From positions 1,069-65,068 of the forward strand of contig JAODNS010000136.1 in assembly GCA_025465145.1 (NCBI GenBank): a DNA stretch of 64,000 bases. The letters are read 5' to 3'. Shown in pieces: positions 1 through 52,797 of this stretch (positions are counted from its first letter, which is position 1; each line of letters starts with the position of its first letter). The notes beneath the pieces were generated by a model. That model was not told the origin of the DNA. It saw only the letters and a list, made by a program, of their open reading frames with translations, and made no database searches. The position numbers and the translations under genes are program-made. The stretch is from Frankiales bacterium. Lineage in GTDB: Bacteria > Actinomycetota > Actinomycetes > Mycobacteriales > SCTD01.

Positions 1-721
1 GCCCGAGGTCGTACGTGAAGGCTGCGTACAGGTGCAGCAGGTCCGCCTGGACGGGGCCGCGCGTCAAGGCCGCGAAGAACGCCACCGCGAAGAACATGCG
101 TCTGGGCGCGAAGACCTCCCGCCAGGGGAGGCTGGGGACGGCGGGGGCCGCAACGGCCGGTGTGGCGCCGGCGTCGTCCTGGGACACCAGGACAGGCACG
201 GCGGCGAGGAGCGACAGGACGGCGTAGGCGGCGAACGGCGCCCGGATCCCTCCGAGCTCCGCGAGAAAGCCCCCCACCAGCGGGCCCGCCATCTTGCCGG
301 TGTTGTCCATCCCGAACATCCAGGAGACGTGTCTGCCTCGCTGATCAGGAGGAGCGTTCTGCGAGATCGCGGCAAGGCGCCCGATCAGCCACATCTGCGC
401 TGCGCAGCCGCCAACGAAGCGGTACACCAACAGCTCGCCGAAGCTGTCTGCGTGGACGATGGCGAACCCGCTCGCAGCCGTCACGAGGGGGCCGCCGAGC
501 ATCACGCGGCGGCGACCGAATCGGTCGACCAGCCAGCCCGCGGGCAGGGTCCCCACGACGTTGCCGAGCAGGAACACCGTGACCACGCTGGTGGCGACGG
601 TAAACGTGACGCCGTAGGACCGCGCCAGCTGCGGAACCGCCGGCACGGCGACTCCCGCGCCAAGGGCGAAAATCAGCGCCGGCAGGTACGTGGAGAAGAC
701 CGAGCCGGCGGAGAGTGCGCC
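1..721 (-). CDS. MFS transporter, partial (C-terminal part lies left of the window); N-terminal boundary unresolved
   Basis: Absent from the ORF track because it has no stop inside the window. My minus-strand translation reads GALSAGSVFSTYLPALIFALGAGVAVPAVPQLARSYGV...LPAGWLVDRFGRRRVMLGGPLVTAASGF...YRFVGGCAAQMW...MFGMDNTGKMAGPLVGGFLAE, i.e. TM1, an MFS motif-A-like DRFGRRR loop and following helices. No ATG/GTG/TTG lies in frame between 646 and the in-frame stop at 833-835. Confidence 0.7.
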
Positions 722-762: not shown

Positions 763-1818
763 CTACTGCGCGACCGTGACGCCGCGGCTGGCCAGGGCTG
801 CCTCGAACATCTCGCGGATCCGCGGGTCCTCGTCAGCCGTCTCGATCTGGTTTCCGCCGTGCTTGACGTCCTCGGCGATGCCCGTGTCCGCGAACACCTT
901 GTACTTGGCACTGTTCCAACGCAACGCCAGGTACTTCGCTGGCCGGTCTCCCACGTTGAAGTGCTGGTGGTACCACATGTTCGGAGGGACGACGAGGCTG
1001 CCTGGACCCCAGTCGAACCGCTGCGGCTCGCCGCCCTCCGGCCACATCAGCGTGTACCCCTCACCGCTCAGGATGACGACGTGCGCGCCCGGGCCGTGAC
1101 GGTGCGCCTTCTTGTAGCGGCCTACCGCGAACTCGGACACGTGCGCGCACATGCTGCTGTCCGCGAGCTCGATCATCCGGTTCGTGCTGCCCTTGCCTCG
1201 CTCGTCCCACAGGATCAGGGGGAGCTGGTCCACGTCGGCGACGAAGTTCGTGTCCCAGACGCGGCCCTCCAAGGCACGGCCCGCGCCGCTGAAGAAGTCG
1301 TCGTCCCCGTTGAACCGGTCCCTGAAGTCGAACGGGCAGTTGTACACGAAGTCGAGGTTGTGGAACAGGTTGATGATCAGGGGCGCCGAGGTGACCGCCA
1401 GGACGCGCGCCGTGTCGGCCCCACTCGCGTTGTGGTGCTGGTAGGACGCATTCAGGGGGATCGCGAACAGGCTGCCGGCGTGCCACTCGAACGTCCGCTT
1501 GTCGGACGGATCGAGCCAAACGCTCGTGGCGCCCCGGCCGGCGACCACGTAGACGAGCTCCTCGTACATGTGCTTCATCGGGTTGGTGCTCCTACCAGGA
1601 GCGATGTCCAGGACGTACCCGTCGTTCTTCTCGCCAGTGCCTTCGAGGTCGAGAAAGGCCCCCGCTCCACCCTTCCAAGGCCACGGTGCCGTCTCGACGG
1701 CGGCGATGTCGCGAACGTGGTAACCGGTGACGACCGGCACCGGATGCGCCTGCCGCCAGTCGTCGTAGGTGGAACGGCCTGTCGCGATTGCTCCGAGGCG
1801 GTCGGCGTCGATCGGCAC
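763..1818 (-). CDS. bicupin protein of unknown function (family often auto-annotated as ethanolamine ammonia-lyase activating protein / gentisate-dioxygenase-like)
   Basis: ORF 763..1989(-). Start trimmed to GTG 1816-1818, which sits 6 nt after AAGGAGG. Two cupin signatures: KHMYEELVYVVAGRG...YQHHN and AHRHGPGAHVVILSGEG...WYHQHFN. Clearly alignable to the paralog at 4977..6008. Confidence 0.8.
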   Translation of the reverse strand: MPIDADRLGAIATGRSTYDDWRQAHPVPVVTGYHVRDIAAVETAPWPWKGGAGAFLDLEGTGEKNDGYVLDIAPGRSTNPMKHMYEELVYVVAGRGATSVWLDPSDKRTFEWHAGSLFAIPLNASYQHHNASGADTARVLAVTSAPLIINLFHNLDFVYNCPFDFRDRFNGDDDFFSGAGRALEGRVWDTNFVADVDQLPLILWDERGKGSTNRMIELADSSMCAHVSEFAVGRYKKAHRHGPGAHVVILSGEGYTLMWPEGGEPQRFDWGPGSLVVPPNMWYHQHFNVGDRPAKYLALRWNSAKYKVFADTGIAEDVKHGGNQIETADEDPRIREMFEAALASRGVTVAQ

Positions 1819-1874
1819 GTGCACCCTCCTTCTTGGTCTGCTTGCGGGAATGAACGGGTCGCGTGAGGCGGTGC

Positions 1875-3383
1875 TCAGCGGAAGACGAGAGATTTGACGA
1901 CGACGGGCACGGCTCCTTGCTGCGGCTCGCCGATGTCCACGTAGCCCCAGTCGCCCACGTGCACCTGGTCGACCGCGAGGACGGGGCACGCGACCCCCAA
2001 CTCCCGGAACATGCCGCCGACCATGCCGGCCACGTCAGCATCTAGGAGCACGACGAGCAAGCGTGTGCCGTCGGCGCAGGTGCGCGGCAGCGCCTCCGCG
2101 AGCCCAGCGCAGACGGCCCGCAGCGTGGCGTAATCCACCGCGCCCGGCCATCTCACGGCGTAAGCCACCCGGTCCATGCCCTCGTCAAGGTCGCGCATCA
2201 CAAGGCCCTGCGCAACCTGCCCCGCCAGCGCTGCGCGCCAGCCACGTCCGGTGAGGTCCACTGGCACGACGGGGACGTCCCGGATCGGCAGCACCGGCAG
2301 CTCCGGCAGGCACAGCGTGTTGCCGCTGACCTGAACGCTGTACTGCGACGCTCCCACGACGGTCGCACGGATACCGATGTCCGGCATCACGGTGGCGAGC
2401 TCGTGCGTGTCCAGCTGTCGTTTGAGCTCCGCCGCCAGTTCCGGTCCGAGGTCGCTGACATCGACCGGGACGACGTCCCGGAAGTACTCGGAGACTCCGC
2501 CCGTGAGCGAGATGGCACTGATACCCGGGACAGGGGCCGGAAGGTCGGTGATCAAGAGCCGTCGAGTCGCCGCAGGCATCTGCGCGGCGCCGCGCAGATG
2601 CTCGATCATGTCCAGGAGCGCGTCCGCCATGCCACGAGCCGCAACGGCGCGGGTGCCGGGCGTCACTCGCGCCCCCAGTAGCGGCGGGTCGTCCACGAAC
2701 TGCGCGAACGACGCTTCCGCACGCGTCACCCTGCAGTCGTCGTCCCAGGCGACAAGGCGGGCGCCTACGGACATGGCCGCTGTCTGCACCACCCTCCCGT
2801 CAGCCACCACCGCGAACTTGGCGGTGCCCCCGCCGATGTCGAGGTTGAGCAGGACGCGCCCTTTGGAGAGCGCGAGCAGGCCGCTGCCCTGGGCAGCGAG
2901 CGAAGCCTCGAGGTGCGGCCCTGCGGTCGCACAGACGAAGTTGCCCGCTCGGGCGGAGAACAGCGCGAGGATCTTCTCTGCGTTCTCCTTCATCGCGGCC
3001 TCGCCAGTGATGATGACCGCGCCCGTGTCCACCGCGTCAGGCCGCAGGCCCGCCGCCGCGTACGCGGCGTCCAGCCGCTGGCCCAGCGCGTCGACGTCTA
3101 TGAGGGACGGCGCCTCATAAGGCGTCAGCGATACAGGGCTCTCGTACGTCGTCACCCGTTCCACGACTCTGTACGCGCTCGACAACCGCCTTCCGTCGCG
3201 TTCCAACACGAGGCGGGAGAACAGCAGGTGAGTGGTCGTCGAGCCGATGTCGATGCCGACGGTATGGAGGGTCAGAACCTCCGGGTGGTCCGACGGGCGC
3301 GGCCCGCCGCGTCCGTGTCGCTCCTGCACCGGCGGATCCGCAGCCAACTGCGCGCCCTCATCGGTACGGGACGCCGTTTCCAT
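1875..3383 (-). CDS. EutA-like ASKHA-fold ATPase (ethanolamine ammonia-lyase reactivating factor family), non-eut context
   Basis: ORF 1875..3725(-). Start trimmed to the in-frame ATG at 3381-3383 (METASRTDEG...). Actin-fold phosphate motifs VGIDIGSTTTH and LNLDIGGGTAKFAV. Length (about 500 aa) and order of conserved blocks (VIITGEAA, FVCATAGPHLEA) match EutA. Ends 56 nt upstream of the bicupin start, same strand. Confidence 0.75.
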   Translation of the reverse strand: METASRTDEGAQLAADPPVQERHGRGGPRPSDHPEVLTLHTVGIDIGSTTTHLLFSRLVLERDGRRLSSAYRVVERVTTYESPVSLTPYEAPSLIDVDALGQRLDAAYAAAGLRPDAVDTGAVIITGEAAMKENAEKILALFSARAGNFVCATAGPHLEASLAAQGSGLLALSKGRVLLNLDIGGGTAKFAVVADGRVVQTAAMSVGARLVAWDDDCRVTRAEASFAQFVDDPPLLGARVTPGTRAVAARGMADALLDMIEHLRGAAQMPAATRRLLITDLPAPVPGISAISLTGGVSEYFRDVVPVDVSDLGPELAAELKRQLDTHELATVMPDIGIRATVVGASQYSVQVSGNTLCLPELPVLPIRDVPVVPVDLTGRGWRAALAGQVAQGLVMRDLDEGMDRVAYAVRWPGAVDYATLRAVCAGLAEALPRTCADGTRLLVVLLDADVAGMVGGMFRELGVACPVLAVDQVHVGDWGYVDIGEPQQGAVPVVVKSLVFR

Positions 3384-3513
3384 CAGCGCAGCATGCCGCG
3401 CCACGACAACGCCGCGCGGGTCCGTGTTCCACTGCCCGGAACGCGCCCCCGCCGGCGCGTGCGCGGCCGCCCGACACTCCAGTGGGTGCCTGACCGAACC
3501 GAACGGAGACCTT

Positions 3514-3936
3514 GTGGAGCTCGACTGGTCCCGCGCGGCTGCCGCTGCCGCTGCGGCTGCGGCAGCGGCTGACGAGCAGGGCATCGCCGTCACCATCTGT
3601 CTTGCTGATTCGCACGGCGTGCCAGTCCTTCTGCGGAGGATGGATGGAGCGGCGTGGGCGACGGCGCGCATAGCCGAGGCCAAAGCGTTCGCGGCAGCCG
3701 CGTTCGGATCCTTCGCCGCCAGCACTCAGTCGATGCACGAGCGCGCGGCGTCGAGCGGCTTCTGGTCGACCGCGCCAGGGCTCTTCCCCGGACAGGTCGC
3801 CTACGGCGACGGGGGCCTGCCGCTGTTCCTTGGCGGCGTCGCTGTTGGTGCGGTAGGCATCAGCGGCGGGACGGGCGCCCAGGACAGGGCGTGTGCAGAC
3901 GCCGCGGCAGCTGCGCTGTCGCCGCCACAGCCATGA
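3514..3936 (+). CDS. GlcG/HbpS-like DUF336 protein (heme/corrinoid-binding fold) with an N-terminal 12-alanine run
   Basis: ORF 3232..3936(+). Start trimmed to GTG 3514 (GGAG 5 nt upstream). Block IAVTICLADSHGVPVLLRRMDGAAWATARIAEAKAFAAAAF...GGLPLF.GGVAVGAVGISGGTGAQD is typical of DUF336. Divergent from the EutA-like gene. Confidence 0.75.
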   Translation: MELDWSRAAAAAAAAAAAADEQGIAVTICLADSHGVPVLLRRMDGAAWATARIAEAKAFAAAAFGSFAASTQSMHERAASSGFWSTAPGLFPGQVAYGDGGLPLFLGGVAVGAVGISGGTGAQDRACADAAAAALSPPQP

Positions 3937-3985
3937 CGCGGGCGGCCTCGTCCCAGGCGCCCTTGGCGGCGGGAGGGTTCGGCAC

Positions 3986-4966
3986 GTGCGGCGGCTGACG
4001 GTGACGGCTGCTCTTGCCGGGTACGACCACGTGCGCGACCTCGCGACGGGCGACGTGTCGCCGCAGGGCGCAGACCTGCTTGTGCTGTCGTACCCGATCG
4101 AGGAGATGTTCGAGCGCTTCCTGAGGCTTCGCGAGTGGCACATCTCGGAGATGTCGCTCGCGAAGTATTGCGCGCTCCGGTCGCAGGGCGACACCTCGAT
4201 GGTCGGGCTGCCGGTCTTCCCGCTCCGCGCGTTCCGGCACTCCGCGATGTACGTGCGCGGCGACTCGCCGCTGTCGAATCCGTCACAGCTCGCCGGGCGC
4301 ACCGTCGGCGTTCCGGAATGGGCTCAGACAGCCGGCGTCTACGTGCGCGGGCTGCTCACCCACGAGTACGGCGTCGCCGTGCATGACGTGACGTGGGTGC
4401 AGGCGGGCGTCAACCAGCCGGGCAGGCTTGAAAAGGTCCGCGTCGCTCTTCCTGCCGGCGTCCGCTGCTCCTCCATGCCTGAGTCGTCCCTCAACGACCT
4501 CCTGCTTGCGGGCGCGATCGACGCCGTGTTCGCGGCGCACCCTCCCGACGGGACCGGGGACGGCAGCATCCGGCCCCTGCTCGCGGATCGGCGGGCCGAG
4601 GAGGCCGCCTACTGGTCACGGACCGGCATCTTCCCGATCATGCACCTGGTGGTGGTACGGGACGACGTGGTGGCGGATCATCCGTGGCTCCCGCTCTCGC
4701 TTTACCGGGCGTTCGACGAGGCGAAGCGCCGCAGCGCAGCGAGGATGCTCGACACCGTCGTGCCCAGGTTCCCGTCGCCGTGGGTCGCGGACGCGGCGCG
4801 GGACGTGGTCGCGGAGCACGGCGACCCGTGGCCGTACGGCATCCATCCGAACCGACCGACGTTGGAAGCCTTCCTCAGCTACTCATGGGAGCAAGGGCTG
4901 CTCGCGACGCCGTTGACGCCGGACGATCTCTTCCCCGCGGACACCGCCGACGGCTACCGCGTCTGA
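3986..4966 (+). CDS. 4,5-dihydroxyphthalate decarboxylase-like protein (PhtD family, periplasmic-binding-protein-like fold)
   Basis: ORF 3893..4966(+). Start trimmed to GTG 3986 (GGGAGGG 8 nt upstream). Blocks LTVTAALAGYDHVRDL..G.V.P.G, EEMFERFLRLREWHISEMSLAKY, LPVFPLRAFRHSAMYV and GVPEWAQTAGVYVRGLLTHEYGV match my memory of PhtD-type decarboxylases. About 326 aa. Confidence 0.7.
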   Translation: MRRLTVTAALAGYDHVRDLATGDVSPQGADLLVLSYPIEEMFERFLRLREWHISEMSLAKYCALRSQGDTSMVGLPVFPLRAFRHSAMYVRGDSPLSNPSQLAGRTVGVPEWAQTAGVYVRGLLTHEYGVAVHDVTWVQAGVNQPGRLEKVRVALPAGVRCSSMPESSLNDLLLAGAIDAVFAAHPPDGTGDGSIRPLLADRRAEEAAYWSRTGIFPIMHLVVVRDDVVADHPWLPLSLYRAFDEAKRRSAARMLDTVVPRFPSPWVADAARDVVAEHGDPWPYGIHPNRPTLEAFLSYSWEQGLLATPLTPDDLFPADTADGYRV

Positions 4967-4976
4967 GCCCGCGCGC

Positions 4977-6008
4977 TCAGCGGCCTCCGCGCGCGGCCGC
5001 GGCCCGCGCGCTGTCGAACATCTCTCTCACCTTCGGGTCCTCGTCCTCGTACTCGATCTGGTCGCCGCCGAGCCTGGTGCTCAGGTTCGACGACGGAATT
5101 CCATCCGCCGTGAACACCCGGTTGTCGAAGTACCGGAGCGCGAGGTACCTCGCGGGCTCGGTGCCGGTGTTGAAGTGCTGGTGGAACCAGCCATCCGGCG
5201 GCACGATGAGCGACCCCGGCCGCCAGTCGTAGCGCGCGAGCTCGGCGCCCTGACGCCACATCAGGCTGTAGCCGCATCCGTCCAGGATGACGACGTGAGC
5301 ACCGGCGCCATGCCGATGCGCCTTCTTGTACTCCCCGACCGCGAACTCTGAGATGTGCGCTTTCATGGAGTTGCCCGCCAGAGTCAGCTGGATGTTGCGT
5401 CCACCGCCGCCGCGTTCGGGGTAGTCGATTAGCCCGAAGGCGCGGACGTCCGCGATGAAGTTCGTACGCCACTCCCTCCCGTGCAGGACCCCCTCCCCGC
5501 TGAAGTACCCGGGATCCCCGTCGAAGCGGTCCTCGAACATGTGCTCGCAGCCGTAGACGAAGTCGAGCGACCTGAACATGTTCAGCACGACTGGGGCGTT
5601 CGTGACCATGAGCAGGCGCGCTGGCTCAGCGCCATCACCGTTGAAGTGCTGGTGCGCGGCGTTCAACGGCACTGCGAACAGACTCCCCGTTCGCCACTCG
5701 AACGCATGGACGTTGCCGCGGCCGTCAGCGACGCGCGTAGCGCCCCGCCCGGACAGCACGTAGACCATCTCCTCGAAGAGGTGGCGCTCCTCGGCCAGTT
5801 CCCCGCCCGGGGCGATTGCGACAATCCGGCAGTCATTGGAGTCGTTGCTCCGGTCATGGTTCAGGATCGCCGCCGCACCACCCACGCGCGGCCAAGGCTG
5901 GAGCGGCACCTCGAGCAGGTCCTCCTGGTAGTTCCCGGACAAGGCGACGAGGCCCTCGTCCCGGAGCCACGCGCTGTACGGACTGCGCACGCCACCTGCT
6001 TGGTTCAC
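4977..6008 (-). CDS. bicupin protein, paralog of 763..1818
   Basis: ORF 4977..6008(-). Motifs RHLFEEMVYVLSGRG...AAHQHFN and AHRHGAGAHVVILDGCG...WFHQHFN. The GTG start overlaps the stop of the upstream GntR gene (GTGA). Confidence 0.8.
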   Translation of the reverse strand: MNQAGGVRSPYSAWLRDEGLVALSGNYQEDLLEVPLQPWPRVGGAAAILNHDRSNDSNDCRIVAIAPGGELAEERHLFEEMVYVLSGRGATRVADGRGNVHAFEWRTGSLFAVPLNAAHQHFNGDGAEPARLLMVTNAPVVLNMFRSLDFVYGCEHMFEDRFDGDPGYFSGEGVLHGREWRTNFIADVRAFGLIDYPERGGGGRNIQLTLAGNSMKAHISEFAVGEYKKAHRHGAGAHVVILDGCGYSLMWRQGAELARYDWRPGSLIVPPDGWFHQHFNTGTEPARYLALRYFDNRVFTADGIPSSNLSTRLGGDQIEYEDEDPKVREMFDSARAAAARGGR

Positions 6009-6832
6009 TGGGAGGTCCCCTTCCGGACCGCCGCCTGAGCCCCGGTCGGCGCCGCCGCTCCGGCACCCGCCCGTCGGCGCAGCGCGGAACGCGCGCGGCC
6101 GCCTGTAGTGCGCGAGCCGCTGTAGTTGCCGTCAAGCCAGAGCCGGTGAAGCCGCCGGAGGTGGCGTTCGGTCTCCGCTATGGCCGACTCCGCGTCGCGT
6201 TCCTTCAAGTGCCTGAGCAGCCGCGAACGCGACGCCACCATCGACCGGTCCTGGATCGGTCCGACGGACAGGATGACGTCGCGCATGAGGTCGACGAGGG
6301 ACCGCATGGAGACGCTGAGGATCGGGTTGGCGCAGGTGTCGGCCAGCAGGTTGTGGAACTCCAGGTGGACGAGCGCCTTCCCGGTCCAGTCTCTGTGTGC
6401 GGTCAGCGCAGCGGCGTCGCGCACGTTCGCAGCCAGTGCGTCGAGATCACCGGCCGTCATGCGCTGGCAGGCGACCCGCAGAACGACGGACTCGATCCAG
6501 ATCCAGGCCTCGACGAGGTCTAGGAGCGAGAAGTCCGTGAGCTGCAGCGAATCGGAGAGAGTCCGCGCCACCCGGGCCGGCTCGACGCGAGACACAAATG
6601 CCCCACCGGTCGCGCCGAGCTTCAACGTCACCAGCCCGCTGATCTCCAGCATCCGGAGCGCTTCGCGCACCGTGTTCCGACTGACGCCGAACATTTCTGC
6701 CAGCTGCCGCTCCGCAGGCAGCCGGTCTCCGGGTTGCAACTCGCCGCTCAACACGTGCTCCCGGATCTGCGAGATGATCTCGTCGAAGGCGCGGCGGGGC
6801 TTCGCGCTGGTGAACAACGCACCAGCCGTCAC
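6005..6832 (-). CDS. GntR/FadR-family transcriptional regulator
   Basis: ORF 6005..6919(-). wHTH block PGDRLPAERQLAEMFGVSRNTVREALRMLEISGLV followed by an FCD-like helical domain. Start tentatively trimmed to the in-frame GTG at 6832; the track start is a TTG abutting the IclR stop. Confidence 0.8.
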   Translation of the reverse strand: MTAGALFTSAKPRRAFDEIISQIREHVLSGELQPGDRLPAERQLAEMFGVSRNTVREALRMLEISGLVTLKLGATGGAFVSRVEPARVARTLSDSLQLTDFSLLDLVEAWIWIESVVLRVACQRMTAGDLDALAANVRDAAALTAHRDWTGKALVHLEFHNLLADTCANPILSVSMRSLVDLMRDVILSVGPIQDRSMVASRSRLLRHLKERDAESAIAETERHLRRLHRLWLDGNYSGSRTTGGRARSALRRRAGAGAAAPTGAQAAVRKGTSQ

Positions 6833-6919
6833 GACCGGCCGAACGCGAGCGTCATCACGGACTTCCGGCTGCTTCAGGTGCCCCCTGGCCGCGGCTGCGG
6901 CGGGCGTCCGCGCGGGCAA

Positions 6920-7696
6920 CTAGGCGCCGCGGGCGAACGACTCAAGCGGCAGCGCGCGTGCGACGGCGTCGGCCGCCTGCCGCAGCATGACGGTCAGGCG
7001 CGGGACGCGAAGTTGACTGGACCAGCCACTGACAGACAGTGCTGCGACCGCAGATCCCTCACCGTCCCGTACGGGCACGGCAACACAGCCCACGCCGGCA
7101 GTGCACTCCTCCCGGTCGAAAGCCAGGTCCCGCTCTCGCACCGCCTTCAGCTCGCGACCGAGCAGTCCCACCATAGTGACCGTCCGCGGCGTCCGTCGAT
7201 CGAACTTCGCGTCACCGATCCACCCGAGGGCGTCCGTGCTCGCGTACGCGAGCAGCGCCTTGCCGACGCCGGTGCAGTGCGCGGGCATGCGACCGCCCAC
7301 CCGGGATGGCAGAACAGGGCCACTCGCCGGATTCAGCTTCTCGACGTACACGACGTCAGCGCCGTCGAGAACGGCGAGATGAACTGTGAGGCCGCTCTGC
7401 GCTTGGAGCTGTGCGAGGGCCGGCGCGGCGACCTCCCGGAGCTGACGCTGACGTGGCGCCAGTTGCCCGAGCTCGAACAGGCGGAGGCCAAGCCGCACTC
7501 CATCACCCGTGCGCTCGACCATCCCCCACGTCTCGAGTTCCTTCAGGAGGCGGTGGGCAGTGGGCTTCGGCAATCCGCTGCGCCGGCTCAGCTCGGTCAA
7601 CGTCAGCGCCTGGTCGTCCGCTCGGAAGCTGCTGAGCAGCGTCAGTGCTCGACCCAGAACCGATGGCGGAACGCCCGCTCGCGAGGTGTGACGCAT
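6920..7696 (-). CDS. IclR-family transcriptional regulator
   Basis: ORF 6920..7744(-). Start trimmed to ATG 7694-7696 (MRHTSRAG...). HTH LTLTELSRRSGLPKPTAHRLLKELETWGMV and effector domain GRMPAHCTGVGKALLA...ECTAGVGCVAVPV. Confidence 0.85.
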   Translation of the reverse strand: MRHTSRAGVPPSVLGRALTLLSSFRADDQALTLTELSRRSGLPKPTAHRLLKELETWGMVERTGDGVRLGLRLFELGQLAPRQRQLREVAAPALAQLQAQSGLTVHLAVLDGADVVYVEKLNPASGPVLPSRVGGRMPAHCTGVGKALLAYASTDALGWIGDAKFDRRTPRTVTMVGLLGRELKAVRERDLAFDREECTAGVGCVAVPVRDGEGSAVAALSVSGWSSQLRVPRLTVMLRQAADAVARALPLESFARGA

Positions 7697-8094
7697 AGCC
7701 GCATTGTGCACGTGACCGCCGTCACACGCCAGCGAAACGTCCAACCATTGACAGAATCTTTCCGTGACGCGCGGACGCGGGCGGCACGGGAGCTGCGTTC
7801 CAAGGTGACTGTGTGGGCATGACGATCAGCTAGAAGGGGGGCATCGTCCGGACTCAGCGTGAGGATCATTCGGTTTCTTCGAACGACCTGATGCAAAATC
7901 GTCCAGCCGCGCCCGGACGACGTGGGTGACGTATGGCGTGACCGCGGGACGCGTACAAGCGGCGTCGCTCGGGCTGCGCAACGGCTCTTTGCCTGGGCAC
8001 TAGGGAATTGTGGTCACGCTGCCGACGACCGTACGAGCCAGACTCCCGGCGCTGTTCTGCGGAGCCGTCCGACCGGGTCGTCGACCCGCTGCCG

Positions 8095-8646
8095 CTAGCA
8101 GCAGGAGTCGACGGTGGGCGCGTCCGCCGACGCGCTGGCGGTGCCGCAGCAGACGACGCCGTCCGTGACCTGGTCGGCGGCGACGACGGTCTGCGGACTG
8201 GCGCCGAAGGTGGGGCTGTCGGCGAGGACGGTGTAGACCTCCCAGCGCTCACCGTCCGGGCCGGTCACCCAGACCTTGTCCTGGGTGGCGAAGCAGCAGG
8301 TCGTGCCGATCTCCTCGTCGGTGAACAGCCCCTCGTCGGTGAGGCGAGCGATCTCTGCGTGGACCTTGTCGCTAGCCGTGACCTCGACGCCGAGGTGGTT
8401 GATGGTGCCTCCCTTGCCGGGGTTTTCCAGCAGGACCAGCTTGAGGGGCGGGGAGGCAACCGCGAAGTTCGCGTAGCCGGGCCGGACCTTCGCGGGCAGG
8501 GTGGCGAACAGCCTTGTGTAGAACGCGACTGCCTCGTCGAGGTCGTCGACGTTCAGAGCGAGCTGAAGTCGTCCGCCCTCGGGCGTCGGCGTCGGCGCCG
8601 GCGCGGTGTCGAGGGCGGGGGTCGTCGGGTCGGTCGTCGCGGTCAT
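8095..8646 (-). CDS. ArsI/CadI-family glyoxalase-fold metalloid/heavy-metal resistance enzyme
   Basis: C-terminal part of ORF 8095..9204(-), starting at ATG 8644-8646. VOC-fold blocks LQLALNVDDLDEAVAFY and INHLGVEV. Vicinal cysteines in GTTCCFATQDKVWV, plus a Cys-rich tail VCCG...DSCC. Confidence 0.75.
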   Translation of the reverse strand: MTATTDPTTPALDTAPAPTPTPEGGRLQLALNVDDLDEAVAFYTRLFATLPAKVRPGYANFAVASPPLKLVLLENPGKGGTINHLGVEVTASDKVHAEIARLTDEGLFTDEEIGTTCCFATQDKVWVTGPDGERWEVYTVLADSPTFGASPQTVVAADQVTDGVVCCGTASASADAPTVDSCC

Positions 8647-8659
8647 GCTGGCTCCCAGG

Positions 8660-8675
8660 TTAGATGAATGTCTAA
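8660..8675. promoter_or_regulatory. AT-rich inverted repeat TTAGA-N6-TCTAA in the cadI/arsR divergent region, candidate ArsR operator
   Basis: Read directly: TTAGATGAATGTCTAA, 14 nt from the ArsI/CadI start. The only AT-rich palindrome in the 105-nt divergent spacer. No binding data. Confidence 0.3.
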
Positions 8676-8751
8676 CGGACGCTACACCGCCTGACTCGAC
8701 GTTCGTCAAGTAATTGCTCGATGTTCGTCGAAGACATGGCAGGATGGCGAC

Positions 8752-9108
8752 ATGCCCAAGGCCCTGCCCGTGCTCGACACGACTGCTCCCGTCTGCTGCT
8801 CCCCGATGGCCGCTGGTCCGGTTGATGAAGGCGCCGCCCTGGAGATCGCGCTGCGTCTGAAAGCGCTTGCGGATCCGGTACGCGTGCGGCTGATGTCGCT
8901 CATCCTGGCGGAGGCAGAGCTCGGCGTCTGCACCTGCGACCTCGCGCCGGCGGTCGGCGTCACGGAGGCGACCGTGTCGCACCACCTGAAGCAGCTGCGC
9001 GATGCCGGCCTGGTCGAGGGAACGCGCAAGGGCACCAACGTGTACTACCGGCCCAACGCGGACGGGCTGGTCGCGCTGTGCCGGGTCATCGACCCGGACT
9101 GCTGCTGA
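8752..9108 (+). CDS. ArsR/SmtB-family metalloregulator
   Basis: ORF 8752..9108(+). LRLKALADPVRVRLMSLI, metal site GVCTCDL, HTH TEATVSHHLKQLRDAGLV. Extra Cys pairs at the N-terminus (VCC) and C-terminus (DCC). Confidence 0.9.
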   Translation: MPKALPVLDTTAPVCCSPMAAGPVDEGAALEIALRLKALADPVRVRLMSLILAEAELGVCTCDLAPAVGVTEATVSHHLKQLRDAGLVEGTRKGTNVYYRPNADGLVALCRVIDPDCC

Positions 9109-9824
9109 TGTCGCTGGGCCGCAAGGCGTTCGCGGAGCTGCTCGGCAGCGCACTGCTCGCCGCGACAGTCGTCGGTTCGGGCATCGCCGCGCAGACGCTG
9201 TCACCGGACGACCCCGGCCTGCAGCTGCTCGAGAACAGCCTGGTCACCGGGTGCGGCCTGGTCGCGCTGATCCTCGCGCTCGGCCCCGTCTCGGCCGCGT
9301 TCAACCCGGCGGTCACCCTGGCGGAGCGGGCGCTCGGCGCGATCACGACGACCGCGGCGGCAGTGCTCATCGCCGCGCAGGTGTTCGGCTGCTGCGCCGG
9401 CGTCGTCGTCGCCAACGTGATGTTCGCGCTGCCTGCCGTCGACGTCAGCCGGCACGACCGCTCGTCCGGCGGGCTCTGGCTCGGCGAGGCCGTGGCCACC
9501 TTCGGCCTGCTGGTCGTCATCTTCGGCGTCGTCCGCGCCGGACGGCAGGGGGCGGTCGCCTTCGCCGTCGGCGGCTACATCACGGCCGCCTACTGGTTCA
9601 CCAGCAGCACGTCCTTCGCCAACCCCGCCATCACCATCGGCCGCACCCTGTCCGACACCTTCGCGGGCATCGCCCCCTCGTCGGTGCCGATGTTCGTGCT
9701 CATGCAGCTCCTGGGCGCAGCACTGGGCGTGGGTGCGGTTCTGGCGCTCTACCCCGACGCCCGCGAGGTCGCGGAGGACGTCACGCACCTCGAGGCCGTC
9801 TCCCGTCAGGAGCCCGGCCCGTGA
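9108..9824 (+). CDS. MIP/aquaporin-family channel (AqpS/GlpF-like, probable arsenite/metalloid channel)
   Basis: ORF 9078..9824(+), trimmed to the ATG that overlaps the arsR stop (TGATG). Two NPA boxes (FNPAVT, ANPAIT) and six hydrophobic segments. Confidence 0.85.
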   Translation: MSLGRKAFAELLGSALLAATVVGSGIAAQTLSPDDPGLQLLENSLVTGCGLVALILALGPVSAAFNPAVTLAERALGAITTTAAAVLIAAQVFGCCAGVVVANVMFALPAVDVSRHDRSSGGLWLGEAVATFGLLVVIFGVVRAGRQGAVAFAVGGYITAAYWFTSSTSFANPAITIGRTLSDTFAGIAPSSVPMFVLMQLLGAALGVGAVLALYPDAREVAEDVTHLEAVSRQEPGP

Positions 9825-9875
9825 CCCACCAACGGCGGACTCAGCGTCGCGGCGACGTTGCTCCTGCCCGCCGCC

Positions 9876-10079
9876 TCAGCTGACGCTGAGCGCCCGCAGC
9901 CGCTCCCTGGCGACCCGCTGCGCCAGGACCGGCACGAACGTGCGGACGGGCGCGCCGGCGAACTCCGCCACCAGTCCACGCAGCTGCTCGCTCACGACCT
10001 GCTCGGTAAGCGCGGACGCGAACTCGCGGACGAGCTCCTCCTCCACGCGGGCGAGCTGGCGGTCCTCGTCCTGCTGCAT
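9876..10079 (-). CDS. small three-helix-bundle protein (resembles the N-terminal dimerisation domain of actinobacterial ArsC/LMW-phosphatase proteins)
   Basis: ORF 9876..10166(-), trimmed to ATG 10077-10079. Sequence MQQDEDRQLARVEEELVREFASALTEQVVSEQLRGLVAEFAGAPVRTFVPVLAQRVARERL. The family call is from memory only. Confidence 0.5.
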   Translation of the reverse strand: MQQDEDRQLARVEEELVREFASALTEQVVSEQLRGLVAEFAGAPVRTFVPVLAQRVARERLRALSVS

Positions 10080-10180
10080 GCGTTCTCCCTCAGGGATGCG
10101 GCGGAGCAGCCGCAGTCTGCGCAGGCGAGAGCGCGGGTGGCAACAGCGGCGCGCCCGGGTCCACAACGCGTTCGAAGGAC

Positions 10181-10960
10181 TCAGCCGAAACGGCCGGTGA
10201 TGTAGTCCTCTGTCCGCTTCTCGCTGGGGTTGCTGAAGATCTTCGGCGTCTCGTCGATCTCCACCAGCCGGCCGGGAGTGCCCGGTCCATCGATGGTGAA
10301 GAAGCCGGTGCGGTCAGAGACCCGGGCCGCCTGCTGCATGTTGTGCGTCACGATGATGATCGTGTAGCGGTCCTTCAGCTCGGTCATCAGGTCCTCGATG
10401 GCGAGCGTCGAGATCGGGTCCAGCGCAGAGCACGGCTCGTCCATGAGGAGCACCTGCGGCTCCACGGCGACCGCTCGCGCGATGCACAGCCGTTGCTGCT
10501 GCCCTCCCGACAGTCCCGCGCCGGGCTTGCCCAGGCGGTCCTTCACCTCGTTCCACAGGTTCGCCGACCGCAGCGACTGCTCGGCGGCGTCGTCCAGGTC
10601 CCCTTTCTTCTTGACGCCGTTGAGTCGCAGCCCTGCGACCACGTTGTCGTAGATCGACATGGTCGGGAACGGGTTCGGTCGCTGGAAGACCATGCCGATC
10701 GCGCGCCGTACCCCGACCGGGTCCACGCCCGGCCCGTACACGTCCTCGTCGTCGAGCAGCAGCTGCCCGGTGACGCGCGCGCCCGGCAGCACCTCGTGCA
10801 TCCGGTTGATGGTGCGCAGGAAGGTCGACTTCCCGCAGCCGGACGGGCCGATGAGGGCGGTGATGCTCTTCGGCTCGATCGTCAGCGTCACACCCTCGAT
10901 GGCCCGGAAGCCGCCGTAGTAGGCGTCCAGGTCCACAGCCTCGATGCGCTTGGCCATCAA
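10181..10960 (-). CDS. pstB: phosphate ABC transporter ATP-binding protein
   Basis: Walker [10 protein letters not shown], signature LSGGQQQRL, Walker B LLMDEP. Typical PstB N-terminus and C-terminus ([10 protein letters not shown]). 4-nt overlap with pstA. Confidence 0.95.
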
Positions 10961-12003
10961 CGGGATCCTTGTCGTCCGATGCGGCTGCGTCGGGTGAGCA
11001 GCCGGGCGAGCAGGTTCAGGACCATGACGACCAGGATGAGCGTCAGGGCGGCGGTCCAGGCCCGGTTGACGGCGGTCTCCTGCGCGTCGCCCGCCTGCTG
11101 GAAGACCATCAGCGGGAGGGACGACTGCGGACCCGAGAACGGGCTGTTGTTGATGGAGGCGGCGCCGAAGGCGGTCAGCAGTACGGGAGCGGTCTCGCCG
11201 GTGACCCGCGCGACCGCCAGCATGATGCCGGTGACGATCCCGGGCAGTGCGGTCGGGAGCACGATCCGCAGGATCGTCTTCCAGCGCGGGATCCCGAGCG
11301 CGAAGCTGGCCTCGCGCAGCGAGTCCGGCACCAGCTTCAGCATCTCCTCCGACGACCGCACGATGATGGGGAGCATCAGGACGGACAGCGCCAGCCCCGC
11401 GGCGAAACCGCTGAACCCCTGCCGCAGCCCGAGGATCCAGAACGACAGGACGAAAAGCCCGGCGACGATGGACGGGATGCCGGTCATGACGTCGACGAAG
11501 AAGCGGATCGTCGCGGCGAGCCGGCCGCGGCCGTACTCCACGATGTACACGGCGACCAGCAGGCCGATCGGCACGGACATCAGCGTGGTGATGGCCACCT
11601 GCTCGACGGTGCCGATGATCGCGTGGTACCCGCCGCCGCCGGCGTCGCGAGCGCCGATGCTGCGCAGGGACCTGGTGAAGAACTCGACGTCGAAGCGGGC
11701 AGCGCCCTCCTGCACCGTGTAGCCCAGGACCGAGAACAGCGGCACGAGCGCGAGCAGGAAGGCCAGGCTGACCAGAGCCGTGACGAACCGGTCCTTCGCG
11801 CGCCGCGATCCCTCGATCCGACGTGCGAGTGCCGTCTGCGCCGCCAGGAAGATCGTGGCGGCCACCAGCACCAGGCCCGGCACGCCCGCGAGCGGTGTCA
11901 GGGCGAACAGCAGCACCGTGACCAGCAGCGCGCAGGCAGCGACGGCAGCGACGGCCAGCAGCGGCAGCGTTCCGCGGCGGAGCGTGGGGGCGGCCGTGGT
12001 CAC
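10957..12003 (-). CDS. pstA: phosphate ABC transporter permease
   Basis: ORF 10957..12003(-). Multi-TM protein with EAA-type loop [25 protein letters not shown] overlap with pstC. Confidence 0.9.
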
Positions 12004-13061
12004 GCCGAACCGCCCGCGAAGTCGCGCCGCCGGTAGATGACGGCGCGCGCGATGACGTTGACGACCAGGGTGATGGCGAACAGGACGAGCCCCGAGGCGA
12101 TCAGGGCGCCACGCCCGGTCGCGGTTGCCTCACCGAACTGCAGCGCGATGTTGGCAGCGATCGTGTTGCCCTTGCCGGGCTCGAGGACGTGGAAGCTGAC
12201 GAGGAAGGCGGGCGACAGCACGAGTGCGACCGCGATCGTCTCGCCCAGAGCTCGGCCGAGACCCAGCATGGTGGCTCCGATGACGCCTGGCTTGCCGAAG
12301 GGGAGCACCGCCATGCGGATCATCTCCCAGCGCGTGGCGCCCAGTGCCAGCGCCGCCTCCTGGTTCGCCGCGGGCACCTGCAGGAAGACCTCGCGGGACA
12401 GCGACGCGATGATCGGCAGGATCATGATGGCGAGCACGACGCTGGCGAGCAGGATCGACCGGCCGTAGATCCCGTCCGCACGGAACAGCGGCACGAACCC
12501 CAGGTGGTCGTGCAGGAACGCCGACAAGCCCTTGATCCGGTCGTTGAGGAAGAAGATCCCCCACAGCCCGTAGACGACGCTGGGCACCGCGGCGAGCAGG
12601 TCCACGACGTAGCCGAGCGGTCCGGCGAAGCGGCGTGGCGCGTAGTGCGAGATGAACAGCGCGACGCCCATCGCCACGGGGAAGGCCATGGCCAGCGCCA
12701 GCACCGACGAGAGCACCGTGCCGAACGCCAGCGCGACGATGCCGAAGGCGGGCGGGGTGGCGTTCGGGTCCCAGCCGACATCGGTGAGGAAGCTGCCGGT
12801 GTTGTCGCGCAGGGCCGGCAGCGCGCGGTAGACGAGGAAGACACCGATCGCGACGATCACGCCGAGCAGCAGGAGGCCGGCGCCGAGCGACAGGCTCCGG
12901 AAGACGCGGTCGCCGCGTCGCTGGCCGGACGCGCTGGCGGTCCGGGGCAGGTCGCCAGCGGAGGACCCCGGCAGCAGGGGCGCGCCGCCGCCACCGTAGG
13001 CAGCGCTGGCGGTGTCAGCACCAGCGGCCGCGTCGGCGCGAGGAGCCGTCAGGTCAGGCAT
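12000..13061 (-). CDS. pstC: phosphate ABC transporter permease
   Basis: ORF 12000..13073(-). Loop [27 protein letters not shown]. Start set to ATG 13061, downstream of AGGAGG. Confidence 0.9.
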
Positions 13062-13147
13062 GAGCTCTCCCACCTCCTCGGGACCGAGCGTACGAAGTCC
13101 CGCCGCTCGGCGAGAGCGGCGGGACCTCCGTCACCAGCTGTGCGGGA

Positions 13148-14260
13148 TCAGGCGAGGGCGCTGACGGCAGCAGCGACCTTGCTGCGGATGCTCTCCGGCA
13201 GCGGTGCGTAGCCGAGGCCGGCCAGGACCTGCTGCCCGTCGCCGGCGGTGTAGCCGAGGAACCCCTTGACCAGGCCGAGCTTGTCGGCGGGCGTACCCGT
13301 CTCGCAGACGATCTCGTACGTCACCAGGATCAGCGGGTACGCGCCCTCGGCCTTGGTCGCGTAGTCGAGCTTCAGCGTCAGATCGCTGCCGCCGCTGCTC
13401 TCCACGGTCGCCGCCTCGACCGCCTTGGCCGCGCTGTCCGTGGTCAGCTCCACCGGGGCAGCCGCGCCAGTGGCGAGCTTCGCGACCCCGAGCTTGGCGT
13501 TCTCCGCGAAGGAGAGCTCGGCGTAGGTGACAGCGCCGGCGGTGGAGGTGACGGCCTGCGTCACCCCGTCGGAGCCCTTGGCGCTCTGGCCCCCGGGGGC
13601 GTTGAACTTCTTGCCCTTGCCGTAGGTCCAGTCGGCCGGGGCCGCGGCCGTCAGGTACTTCTGGAAGTTGTCCGTCGTCCCCGACTCGTCGGAGCGGTGG
13701 AACGCCTGGACCTTCGTGGACGGCAGCTTCGCGTCGGCGTTCAGCGCTGCGATGGCCTTGTCGTCCCAACTGATGATCTTGCCGGCGAACATCTTCGCGA
13801 TCGTGGGAGCGTCCAGCACCAGGTCCTCGACGCCGGGCAGGTTGTACGCCACGGCGATGGGGCCGACCACCATCGGCAGGTCGATGGCCTTGCCCGTCTT
13901 GCAGCGGGCGTCCGCCTGCGGGTGCTCCTCGGGCTTGAGCGCCGAGTCCGAGCCGGCGAAGTCGACCGTGCCGGCGATGAACTGCTGGACGCCGGCGCCG
14001 GAGCCGACGGGCTGGTAGTTGACGGTGGCGTCGCTGCAGGTGCTCTGGAAGTTCTTCGTCCACTCGTCCATGGCGTTCTTCTGGGCGCTGGAACCGGCGG
14101 CGGTGAGGCTGCCGGAGGCGCAGCTGCTGCTCGCGGAGGTGCCGGCGGACGCACCACCAGCGCTCGATGCGCCGGTGTTGTCGTCGCTGCCGCACGCGGT
14201 CAGCGTGAGGGACGACGCAAGGGCGAGACCGGCGATGACGCCGGACCGGTTGACCTTCAC
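13148..14260 (-). CDS. pstS: phosphate-binding lipoprotein
   Basis: ORF 13148..14260(-). Signal peptide with lipobox LTLTACG. Blocks GSSAQKNAM, YQPVGSGAG and SDESGTTDNF are typical of PstS. Confidence 0.93.
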   Translation of the reverse strand: MKVNRSGVIAGLALASSLTLTACGSDDNTGASSAGGASAGTSASSSCASGSLTAAGSSAQKNAMDEWTKNFQSTCSDATVNYQPVGSGAGVQQFIAGTVDFAGSDSALKPEEHPQADARCKTGKAIDLPMVVGPIAVAYNLPGVEDLVLDAPTIAKMFAGKIISWDDKAIAALNADAKLPSTKVQAFHRSDESGTTDNFQKYLTAAAPADWTYGKGKKFNAPGGQSAKGSDGVTQAVTSTAGAVTYAELSFAENAKLGVAKLATGAAAPVELTTDSAAKAVEAATVESSGGSDLTLKLDYATKAEGAYPLILVTYEIVCETGTPADKLGLVKGFLGYTAGDGQQVLAGLGYAPLPESIRSKVAAAVSALA

Positions 14261-14390
14261 TCGGGAGGCCCTTCTGGTTCGCGACTGCTGGCGCCGGAGG
14301 CGGTCTCGTCAGGGACGCCGGCCCAGCAGCCTCATGAGGTTGAGGCTGACGTCAGCGACGCTAGGGAGCAGACGTGGCTGGTCGGCGCAC

Positions 14391-14412
14391 ACCCGGTGAA
14401 CGCGGGATGAAC
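14391..14412 (-). promoter_or_regulatory. PHO box: two 11-nt direct repeat units GTTCATCCCGC GTTCACCGGGT upstream of pstS
   Basis: Minus-strand reading of 14391-14412. Matches the actinobacterial PhoP direct-repeat core GTTCACC with 11-nt periodicity. About 130 nt upstream of the pstS start. Confidence 0.55.
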
Positions 14413-14452
14413 GGCCCATGAGCAGTACCGCGGAGTCGGTCAGCGCCGACGC

Positions 14453-15097
14453 TCAGACCTCTGCGTGCTCGCCCGTCACCATGTACGTGACCCGGTGCCC
14501 CACCGCCACGGCGTGGTCGGCGAGCCGCTCGTAGTAGCGACCCGCGAGGGTGGCGTCGATGGCGGCCTCGATGTCCTGACCTCCGTCCTGCAGCACCAGG
14601 GTGAACAGCCGCTTCTGCAGCGCGTCCATCGCGTCGTCGTCCACCTCCAGCTCGGCTGCCAGCTCGAGGTCGCGGGTGGCGATGACGGTGCCGGTCTTGT
14701 CGAGAATCTGCTGGGCGGTCTGCCCCATCTCCAGGACCGTGCCGCGCAGCGCGTCCGGCACAGCTGACGCCGGATGCCGCCGGCGGGCGATCTTCGCGAG
14801 GTGGACGACGTAGTCGCCGGCCCGCTCCAGGTCCACGACGATGCGCAGGCTGGTGACGAGCACCCGCAGGTCTCCGGCCACCGGCTGCTGCCGCGCGAGC
14901 AGGTCGAAGGCCTGGGTCTCCACGCCGCGGTACAGGGCGTTGATGGCGTCGTCGCCCTCGATGACCTGCTCGGCGAGAGCGAGGTCGGCGCGGGTGAGAG
15001 CAGCCGTGGCCTGGGTGACCCCGCGTGCCACCAGCTGACTCATCTGGAACAGGTCCTGGACGATGGCGTCGAGCTGGTCGTGGTACGTGTCGCGCAT
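14453..15097 (-). CDS. phoU: phosphate signalling complex protein PhoU
   Basis: ORF 14453..15319(-), trimmed to ATG 15095-15097 (MRDTYHDQLD...). Duplicated PhoU repeats with E(R/D)xGD-type motifs (DLERAGDYVVH, YERLADHAV). 2-nt gap after the upstream regulator gene. Confidence 0.9.
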   Translation of the reverse strand: MRDTYHDQLDAIVQDLFQMSQLVARGVTQATAALTRADLALAEQVIEGDDAINALYRGVETQAFDLLARQQPVAGDLRVLVTSLRIVVDLERAGDYVVHLAKIARRRHPASAVPDALRGTVLEMGQTAQQILDKTGTVIATRDLELAAELEVDDDAMDALQKRLFTLVLQDGGQDIEAAIDATLAGRYYERLADHAVAVGHRVTYMVTGEHAEV

Positions 15098-15099
15098 GG

Positions 15100-15879: not shown

Positions 15880-15935
15880 ACGTCCCGCCGACGGAGCGAC
15901 GCCACGGGAGACATCAGATCAACATCAGGCTCGCA

Positions 15936-15957
15936 GGTGTACAGCGGGTGTACGCGG
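15936..15957 (-). promoter_or_regulatory. PHO-box-like direct repeat GTACACCCGCT GTACACCTGCG upstream of the atypical regulator gene
   Basis: On the plus strand, GGTGTAC occurs at 15936-15942 and again at 15947-15953 (11-nt period), 57-78 nt upstream of the start at 15879. Confidence 0.35.
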
Positions 15958-52761: not shown

Positions 52762-52797
52762 GACGAGCTCCTCTCCCGGATGTGAACGGAGGCTAAC

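Follow-up and report, generated by a model that had tools for sequence, protein, structure and literature searches.

Why should a bacterium keep a homolog of EutA, the ATP-dependent reactivase of the adenosylcobalamin (AdoCbl) enzyme ethanolamine ammonia-lyase, in a gene cluster that encodes no such lyase? The question is raised by a locus of a Frankiales bacterium (contig JAODNS010000136.1, positions 1,069 to 65,068), a stretch of 64,000 nucleotides referred to here as the window, in which the gene for an EutA-like ATPase is followed by one for a bicupin (bicupin A), and a second bicupin (bicupin B) is encoded further along the same cluster. The original prediction, made from the sequence letters, was that the EutA-type protein services a partner other than a lyase, most plausibly the bicupin. 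The non-lyase linkage behind this proposal turned out to be reciprocal, mostly adjacent and co-varying in other genomes; the servicing itself is what we infer from that linkage. Because the pairing is reciprocal and conserved, the EutA family PF06277 is matched and eutBC were not found in the window or in ~160 related loci, we uphold the choice of partner: the EutA-like protein very probably works with the bicupin and not with an ethanolamine lyase.

The open reading frame (ORF) of the EutA-like protein gives a strong, full-length match to PF06277 (327.8 bits, the cut-off being 27; 3-474 of the 475 model positions). EutA of Escherichia coli (b2451) belongs to the same family over its full length, is 36% identical to the window protein over 477 residues and carries the same ASKHA motifs; the window protein has both phosphate motifs in intact form, GIDIGSTTTH (phosphate-1) and NLDIGGGTAKF (phosphate-2), and they do not vary in the alignment. 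Like EutA, the protein probably uses ATP to restore the cofactor site of a partner. The two differ in their surroundings, in that the conserved neighbour of the EutA-like gene is a bicupin gene and no eut or bacterial microcompartment (BMC) genes lie near it, and also in the His/Asp tails found on relatives of the EutA-like protein. The protein collection contains the exact 502-residue form as P0001, and the closest relatives there share only 47-52% identity with it. It falls below the cut-offs of all four NCBIfam EutA equivalogs (NF007991-NF007994), with 257.5, 243.5, 200.3 and 176.3 bits against 598, 769, 799 and 952. Since both these cut-offs and the test of genomic context described below were failed, the reactivase name does not fit, and the protein should not be called an ethanolamine-lyase reactivase. 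A search of solved structures by sequence returned no match, and Pfam at E<=0.01 no hydantoinase or oxoprolinase family. The AlphaFold2 model, with a predicted local distance difference test (pLDDT) score of 84.9, shows a generic ASKHA fold to which a C-terminal domain is added, and is not close to any solved protein; Foldseek pairs it at probability 1.0 with PPX/GppA, HgdC-type activators, MreB and PilM.

The genomic context was tested by tblastn with EutB, EutC, EutK/L/M/N and EutT/J/H/E/G/D of E. coli K-12, taken from locus L010. None of them found a match in the 64 kb, in agreement with the prediction that the window has neither eutB/eutC nor a microcompartment gene. EutB and EutC were equally missing from all 80 bicupin-anchored and all 80 EutA-anchored loci introduced below, and no B12-binding, mutase, BMC or other eut homolog was found in any of these ~160 related loci. 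No dehydratase family was matched in Pfam by the ten largest ORFs of the window (483-1165 aa); a diol dehydratase reference was not searched.

The source organism itself evidently uses B12, judging from two predicted proteins of the window. One is an IcmF-like fusion of B12-binding, MeaB GTPase and methylmalonyl-CoA mutase domains (26906-30133(+); PF02310, PF03308, PF01642), an AdoCbl enzyme; the other has B12-binding_2 and B12-binding domains (34516-35967(-)). The IcmF-like mutase was considered as a client of the EutA-like protein, and both proteins, which are unrelated to the cluster, were rejected as clients because they lie >23 kb from it, the mutase has a MeaB domain of its own, and no mutase or B12-binding homolog occurs in the related loci. 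DUF336, which also occurs fused to PduO adenosyltransferases, had been taken as a further hint of corrinoids. The DUF336 gene of the cluster is genuine by its PF03928 score (91 bits against a cut-off of 25); a homolog was found in just one of the ~160 related loci (L051), which makes it an accessory specific to this window and not a conserved member of a B12-flavoured module, and the hint was dropped. Taken together, the evidence points to metal handling over corrinoid handling.

The pairing was examined from both sides. For the bicupin-anchored scan, one genome per GTDB species was searched with a bicupin alignment, and the 80 best loci were scored by tblastn. The bicupin was confirmed in at least 576 relatives (576 of the first 600 pattern matches listed, in species-representative genomes), and an EutA-like gene lies within 10 kb in 42 of the 55 loci (76%) that are at least 15 kb long among those best 80. 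The EutA-anchored scan took an EutA-like alignment to metagenome contigs, and the 80 loci closest to the window protein were scored: 50 contain a bicupin, as do 27 of the 36 where the locus is at least 8 kb. The bicupin gene is directly adjacent and on the same strand in 46 of these 50. The gap between the paired genes is mostly <200 bp, and the pair spans at least six phyla or classes, being found in Actinobacteria, Firmicutes, Chloroflexi, Acidobacteria and Alpha-, Beta- and Gammaproteobacteria. Reciprocal scans thus bear out, at ~75% in each direction, the conservation in other genomes on which the prediction depended. Apart from the pair, the surrounding genes vary widely between loci.

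Individual loci illustrate the pattern. In the closest relatives for which context is available (L001 and L002/L003) the EutA-like gene is followed by two tandem genes for bicupins of ~350 aa, and eutBC are absent. An EutA-like gene lies within 10 kb of a bicupin gene in Streptomyces sp. GMY02, in Effusibacillus lacus and in an Acidobacteria metagenome-assembled genome (MAG), and a Phyllobacterium plasmid (L171) carries the pair annotated as "hypothetical protein" and "EutA". For the window EutA-like protein and for bicupin A alike, the nearest loci are L001 and L002. When 75 adjacent pairs are compared, pairwise distances among EutA-like proteins correlate with those among bicupins at r=0.79, a value reached in 0 of 500 permutations; this shows co-inheritance as a unit, with shared organismal phylogeny contributing to the correlation.

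What kind of protein is the presumed partner? Bicupins A and B are 51% identical to each other. The nearest relatives of bicupin A are the bicupins of L002 (65%) and L001 (56%), both adjoining EutA-like genes; bicupin B is >50% identical to family members across phyla, and the family as a whole is unusually well conserved, at >50% identity from Streptomyces to Bacillota, Chloroflexota, Acidobacteriota and Pseudomonadota. In an alignment of 14 diverse members, H231, H233, H238, H276, H278 and N280 of the C-terminal barrel are invariant, within the motif Y-K-K-A-H-R-H-G-x-G-A-H ... H-Q-H-F-N. The motif is kept in both window paralogs, where HRHGPGAH and HQHFN can be read, and the N-terminal barrel shows no conserved His pair among the 14 members. 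By cupin motif rules, the C-terminal barrel would hold a four-His metal site with His at the usual Glu position.

The bicupin model (pLDDT 89.5) has the expected bicupin fold and is matched by Foldseek to MncA, OxdC and vicilins at E ~1e-17, with TM ~0.5 to solved bicupins. Remote sequence matches include gentisate and 5-aminosalicylate dioxygenases, auxin-binding protein and oxalate decarboxylase, of which the two dioxygenases are the sole enzyme-family matches that we cite for an aromatic role. Because these similarities are remote and the fold matches generic, the family counts as structurally and biochemically uncharacterised. The gentisate, salicylate and 5-aminosalicylate 1,2-dioxygenases resemble the bicupins described here in being ~350-aa bicupins with an A-H-R-H motif in an aromatic-acid gene setting. 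They differ at the metal: class III cupin dioxygenases have their site in the N-terminal barrel with the usual Glu position, and the gentisate 1,2-dioxygenase family a three-His Fe site in that barrel, whereas the site proposed here has four His and lies in the C-terminal barrel. The gentisate 1,2-dioxygenase model TIGR02272 gives the bicupins 18-21 bits where 442 are required, and PDB 3bu7 matches one barrel at E=5e-7. The oxalate decarboxylase/MncA type fares no better: the best profile (E=1.7e-4) covers one barrel only, and the HxH...E...H site of the Mn-bicupins is lacking, the N-terminal barrel being without an HxH pair and the C-terminal one having His for Glu. Our best guess, because of the A-H-R-H motif and the genomic context, is that the bicupin reaction would be of the O2-dependent, ring-cleaving type.

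Additional cupin genes are frequent near the pair. An obligate alpha/beta pair of bicupin orthogroups was considered and discarded, as co-resident copies usually cluster together among 155 bicupins. Pairs of single-domain cupins (~180 and ~200 aa), homologous to the bicupin halves, are encoded just upstream of the bicupin in L014, L017, L021, L023, L028, L032 and many other loci, and the ~180-aa form occurs in 26 of the 55 long loci. Such pairs could represent a split bicupin or swap-in subunits. By analogy with DdrB, or with the "self-subunit swapping" chaperones of nitrile hydratase, the extra bicupin and small-cupin paralogs might act as swap-in subunits.

The evidence supports a setting of aromatic-acid catabolism, in keeping with the original prediction of an aromatic or hydroxy-acid module. 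The PhtD-like protein of the window, of the 4,5-dihydroxyphthalate decarboxylase family, has full-length homology to PhtD and aligns end to end with chain 9jp7_A (230.7 bits, query 11-356 against chain 6-348); Pfam gave no match. PhtD-like homologs recur in 12 of the 55 bicupin-anchored loci of at least 15 kb and in 7 of the 36 EutA-anchored loci of at least 8 kb. Among the same 55 loci, 7 have class II aldolase-family genes, 19 have phthalate-family (alpha-only, LigXa-type) Rieske oxygenases and 12 have a thiamine pyrophosphate (TPP) enzyme, which a HIBADH-like dehydrogenase often accompanies; transporters of the TctABC or ABC type are common in related loci. Of the class II aldolase neighbours one was scored, that of L007, and it is PhtC-like (NF053537, 190 bits against a cut-off of 200), which we take to be the 3,4-dihydroxyphthalate decarboxylase type. 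Two non-homologous families resembling dihydroxyphthalate decarboxylases therefore recur by the pair, and the pathway would handle aromatic di-acids that bear hydroxyl groups, together with the hydroxybenzoates formed from such di-acids. In a Streptomyces locus, a complete gentisate-pathway set stands between the EutA-like gene and the bicupins.

The version in the window is minimal, with an importer, a decarboxylase, two bicupins, the ATPase and two regulators. One of these, the IclR regulator, is of PcaR/PobR type and scores 151 bits with TIGR02431 (pcaR_pcaU), against a cut-off of 284.75. A tblastn search of the window with a phthalate-family query found no Rieske oxygenase; a dihydrodiol dehydrogenase was not searched. 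As the gene list of the cluster has neither a phthalate 4,5-dioxygenase nor a cis-dihydrodiol dehydrogenase, the substrate of the PhtD-like protein is probably a different hydroxylated diacid than 4,5-dihydroxyphthalate.

A metal theme runs through the EutA-like partners. Many of them bear His/Asp-rich tails, which E. coli EutA does not have. The proteobacterial members have a conserved N-terminal extension, approximately K-x-H-T-L-x-D-H-x-x-G-...-H-x-H-D-G-x-A-D-H-D-H-D-H-...-N-P-I-W-x-Q-D; in firmicute and actinobacterial members the poly-His/Asp runs are longer; and some have the tail at the C-terminus, as in Rhodobacter L019, which ends ...HGHGHGHGHGHSHGHSHDHGHSHSHGHSHAHTHHHTH. If a tail is crudely defined by 5 or more His, either in the C-terminal tail or in the 70 residues that precede the ASKHA motif, tails are present in 39 of 75 EutA-like proteins with an adjacent bicupin, in 23 of 24 with a bicupin nearby and in 14 of 31 without a bicupin seen, many of the last being on short contigs. 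Metal transporters are occasional neighbours. In five loci of at least two phyla, a NicO-family permease that shows an H-x4-D-H signature is encoded at a distance of 0.1-3 kb from the EutA-like gene (Table 1); the copies in L008 and L019 score 30.6 and 31.7 against the Pfam gathering score of 27.7, and the L100 copy has no match. On the Phyllobacterium plasmid, a TerC/YjbE metal transporter (12805-13446) adjoins the pair.

A His-rich nucleoside triphosphatase (NTPase), its client metalloenzyme and a NiCoT permease make up the classic maturation layout of urease, hydrogenase and Co-nitrile hydratase. HypB, UreG/UreE, CooJ/CooC, COG0523/CobW and the nitrile-hydratase activators resemble the relatives of the EutA-like protein in having His-rich tails, in being encoded beside the client and, in some cases, in having a NiCoT/NicO permease close by. 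They differ in fold, the His-rich NTPase metallochaperones being SIMIBI/G3E P-loop proteins and the EutA-like protein an ASKHA protein. As to the metal of the bicupin, Ni or Co is hinted at by the NicO neighbours, and Fe or Mn would be equally possible.

The reading that we favour is that the cluster catabolises a hydroxylated aromatic (di)carboxylic acid, with the EutA-like protein keeping the bicupin active. The MFS transporter would import the aromatic acid, and the PhtD-like decarboxylase would convert a dihydroxy-diacid to a hydroxybenzoate. The bicupin or bicupins, as O2-dependent metalloenzymes of the ring-cleaving type, would most likely act on this product or a close relative, and the GntR and IclR proteins would regulate the cluster. 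The EutA-like protein would be a dedicated ATP-dependent activase of the bicupin, in which ATP-driven conformational work inserts, exchanges or restores the metal of the four-His site. Such a metal exchange would parallel the exchange of damaged cobalamin by canonical EutA and DdrAB. A physical interaction of the EutA-like protein with the bicupin is likewise something that we infer. This reading as a whole, with catabolic cluster, partnership and metallocentre activation, is put forward tentatively, at a little short of an even chance, and the metallocentre mechanism taken by itself stands at about the same level. By extension, and no less tentatively, EutA-family proteins outside eut operons may be a new class of ASKHA-fold, ATP-driven metallocentre chaperones or reactivases for four-His bicupins.

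Known activators offer partial models. The reactivases of diol and glycerol dehydratase, DdrAB and GdrAB, are ASKHA/Hsp70-like ATPases that are encoded beside the enzyme they reactivate and work by cofactor exchange, and they served as a conceptual model. They differ from the system described here in several respects: neither sequence nor structure brought out a match to them, the top 50 Foldseek matches of the EutA-like model including neither a DdrA nor a GdrA chain; no B12 client is at hand; and no small beta subunit was identified, extra bicupin or small-cupin paralogs being frequent instead. The XylT-type ferredoxin is an accessory of an aromatic operon that restores the metal centre of catechol 2,3-dioxygenase and so provides a precedent for a dedicated activator. 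As a small [2Fe-2S] ferredoxin, XylT acts by reducing Fe(III), and it is neither an ATPase nor homologous to the EutA-like protein. We know of no ASKHA-fold metallochaperone and of no dedicated cupin chaperone, and the literature searches brought up neither.

Several observations weigh against the proposed activase. The structural comparisons are generic: the ASKHA matches of the EutA-like model reach TM values of only 0.3-0.37 and say nothing specific on function, and the bicupin matches are equally silent. The correlation of distances is inseparable from shared organismal phylogeny. Whichever protein serves as anchor, about a quarter of the loci have no partner gene within 10 kb. The EutA-like proteins of window and L002 have no His-rich tail, only ERHGRGGPRPSDHPE being left, and because the window's own protein is without it, a metal-donor tail is not universal. 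Finally, the EutA-like genes of L004-L006 have UbiD, amidohydrolase and CoA-transferase neighbours and no cupin; because of this sub-clade, the EutA-like family may serve other clients too. The sub-clade (P0012; ~7400-16500 in these loci) is 48% identical to the window EutA-like protein and has no bicupin nearby. Its gene neighbours encode two UbiD decarboxylases, an amidohydrolase_2, two family-III CoA-transferases, a class II aldolase and a GntR regulator.

Among other explanations, the one with most weight, which we nevertheless consider unlikely, is that a single enzyme is composed of the EutA-like protein and the bicupin(s) and spends ATP stoichiometrically in catalysis, for example for substrate phosphorylation or activation, carboxylation or decarboxylation, or ring opening, as in the ASKHA-containing hydantoinase, oxoprolinase and acetone-carboxylase systems. 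Tight same-strand adjacency, the co-variation of both proteins, intact ATP-binding motifs and a fold common to kinases and phosphatases would all suit such a holoenzyme. So would a fusion, and an alphaproteobacterial MAG (L073, 4940-7540(-)) has one open frame of 1074 codons that joins the bicupin to the EutA-like protein with no stop between. It was examined as a Rosetta-stone fusion and rejected: its closest relatives (93% identity) are separate proteins of 493 aa, and two odd-length entries carry both domains. The L073 frame may be a rare fusion or an assembly error; it is treated as an unreliable, non-recurrent architecture and counts against the activase as well. The holoenzyme is at odds with the fact that the sole characterised member of PF06277 is a reactivase, with the negative Pfam result for hydantoinase and oxoprolinase, and with the ~25% of bicupins that have no EutA-like gene within 10 kb, which is odd for an obligate subunit; His-rich tails and metal permeases, moreover, typify metallochaperones and not catalytic subunits, and the fusion does not recur. 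Next in weight, and also unlikely, is an Hsp70-like assembly or redox-repair factor that delivers no metal and instead assembles the oligomer, removes an inhibitory ligand or releases the bicupin from an oxidised, inactive state. The linkage evidence for it is identical to that for the activase; the tail-less window protein and some relatives agree with it, and canonical EutA reportedly releases the damaged cofactor and does not synthesise one. What speaks for metal delivery over this alternative are the His/Asp-rich tails, which occur often and share a conserved sequence among the proteobacterial members, and the occasional metal permeases.

The remaining two explanations detach the EutA-like protein from the bicupin. 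It is very improbable that the protein is a true AdoCbl-enzyme reactivase whose client lies elsewhere, either eutBC outside the window or the IcmF-like mutase (26.9-30.1 kb), with an incidental bicupin as neighbour. The PF06277 match over the full length, the 36% identity to E. coli EutA, the use of B12 by the organism and the fusion of DUF336 to PduO adenosyltransferases would be in keeping with it; against this stand the absence of EutB, EutC, BMC, mutase and B12-binding domains from all ~160 related loci, the chaperone domain that IcmF brings along, a shortfall of >300 bits at the NCBIfam cut-offs and a DUF336 that is not conserved with the pair. Least probable of all, and hardly to be expected, is that the two genes have no functional relationship and co-travel on a mobile catabolic island. 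The G+C content at third codon positions (GC3) is 0.77-0.90 for the cluster genes (763-7696) and 0.90-0.96 for the other genes of the window, a weak hint that the cluster may have been acquired horizontally. Hitch-hiking sits badly with neighbours that vary widely while the pair persists, with its short gaps, across at least six phyla or classes.

The linkage of EutA homologs with bicupins has left a mark in the databases. The NCBI name "ethanolamine ammonia lyase-activating protein" stands on seven members of the bicupin family (P0150, P0155, P0160, P0188, P0198, P0215 and P0238), so that the label quoted in the original prediction is real. In a full-text search of the literature, no account was found of a link between EutA homologs and cupins or metals, nor of the bicupin label; the matches to "EutA" concerned the unrelated EutA of ectoine utilisation, and a 2026 review of phthalate degradation mentions neither a cupin nor an EutA-like component. 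The odd label is the sole trace of the linkage in public data. The metalation of cytoplasmic cupins against the Irving-Williams order is a long-standing problem, with MncA and CucA as the textbook case.

If the activase exists as proposed, it would be the first dedicated ATPase for metal insertion or repair in a cupin, and a new solution to metalation. It would be a mechanistic sibling of the B12 reactivases, and would widen cofactor exchange from cobalamin to a bare metal ion. Thousands of entries named "ethanolamine ammonia-lyase reactivating factor EutA" or "ethanolamine ammonia lyase-activating protein" would then be misnamed, and two systematic misannotations that imply ethanolamine metabolism in genomes without eutBC would be corrected. 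A large, cross-phylum pair in aromatic and organic-acid catabolic clusters would gain a role. Heterologous expression of such bicupins, e.g. in the valorisation of phthalate or plastic monomers, may fail without co-expression of the EutA-like protein. The window holds an atypical, tail-less member; the cross-phylum pairing and the His-rich tails are what would surprise specialists in cupins, metalation or B12 reactivases.

The gene map of the cluster (Table 1) combines a list of the ORFs of the window with matches from Pfam and NCBIfam and a survey of start codons, and all the genes named in the original prediction were found where it had placed them.

Table 1. Genes and intergenic region of the EutA-like/bicupin cluster in the window, and NicO/NiCoT-like permeases near EutA-like genes in related loci
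Feature	Sequence	Coordinates	Strand	Basis or remark
MFS transporter, N-terminal part, runs off left edge	window	~1-721	-	PF07690 MFS_1 E=2e-36 on translation of 2-721
Bicupin A, 353 aa	window	763-1824	-	two Cupin_2 stretches; GTG start
EutA-like ASKHA ATPase, 502 aa	window	1875-3383	-	PF06277 E=1.6e-97; ATG 3383 likeliest start
Divergent intergenic (promoter) region between EutA-like and DUF336 operons, 130 bp	window	3384-3513	.	from gene starts
DUF336 / HbpS-GlcG-like protein, 140 aa	window	3514-3936	+	PF03928 E=8.3e-26
PhtD-like protein (4,5-dihydroxyphthalate decarboxylase family), 326 aa	window	3986-4966	+	PDB 9jp7 E=2.1e-67
Bicupin B, 343 aa, convergent with PhtD-like gene	window	4977-6008	-	two Cupin_2 stretches
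GntR/FCD regulator	window	6005-6832 (maximal ORF to 6919)	-	PF00392 E=1.5e-21, PF07729 E=6.4e-14
IclR regulator, PcaR/PobR-like	window	6920-7696	-	PF09339, PF01614
NicO/NiCoT-like permease	L008	13719-14435		
NicO/NiCoT-like permease	L019	9031-9585		
NicO/NiCoT-like permease	L043	13022-13672		
NicO/NiCoT-like permease	L072	13082-13660		
NicO/NiCoT-like permease	L100	2575-3213		

The G+C content is ~70% across the region. The transcription unit of the EutA-like and bicupin A genes ends with the MFS transporter gene, in which MFS motif A, GWLVDRFGRRRV, can be read. The GTG start of bicupin A is preceded by AAGAAGGAGG, with AAGGAGG as ribosome-binding site, and the GTG start of the PhtD-like gene lies behind GGGAGGG. 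The predicted GTGA coupling of bicupin B to the GntR gene is visible in the sequence, the TGA stop of GntR overlapping the GTG start of bicupin B; a gene caller puts an alternative start of bicupin B at 5990 (337 aa; P0121). When the divergent promoter and the regions ahead of the regulator genes were searched for a shared palindrome, only GC-rich palindromes at chance level were returned, and hence no operator can be assigned.

The DUF336 gene contains 12 consecutive Ala codons near its N-terminus (~3535-3570(+), VELDWSR-A12-DEQG). The maximal ORF of the EutA-like gene extends over 1875-3725(-), and the opposite strand of the Ala run reads as poly-Ala in its non-coding 5´ extension.

To the right of the cluster, an arsenic-type trio (8095-9824) encodes a glyoxalase-fold protein, perhaps ArsI-like, an ArsR-family regulator and a MIP channel, and beyond it lies a pstBAC phosphate transporter (10181-13073); the cluster therefore ends near 7.7 kb. 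Further along, the gene for the B12-binding protein mentioned above sits between those for two large PAS/REC-GGDEF-EAL proteins (31165-34458 and 35904-39401, region 31165-39401(-)), and the three may form a cobalamin- or light-responsive cyclic di-GMP signalling unit. A protein with the N-terminal domain of mycothiol maleylpyruvate isomerase (PF11716) is encoded at 51991-53391(-), which fits an actinobacterial host with putative gentisate-type chemistry elsewhere.

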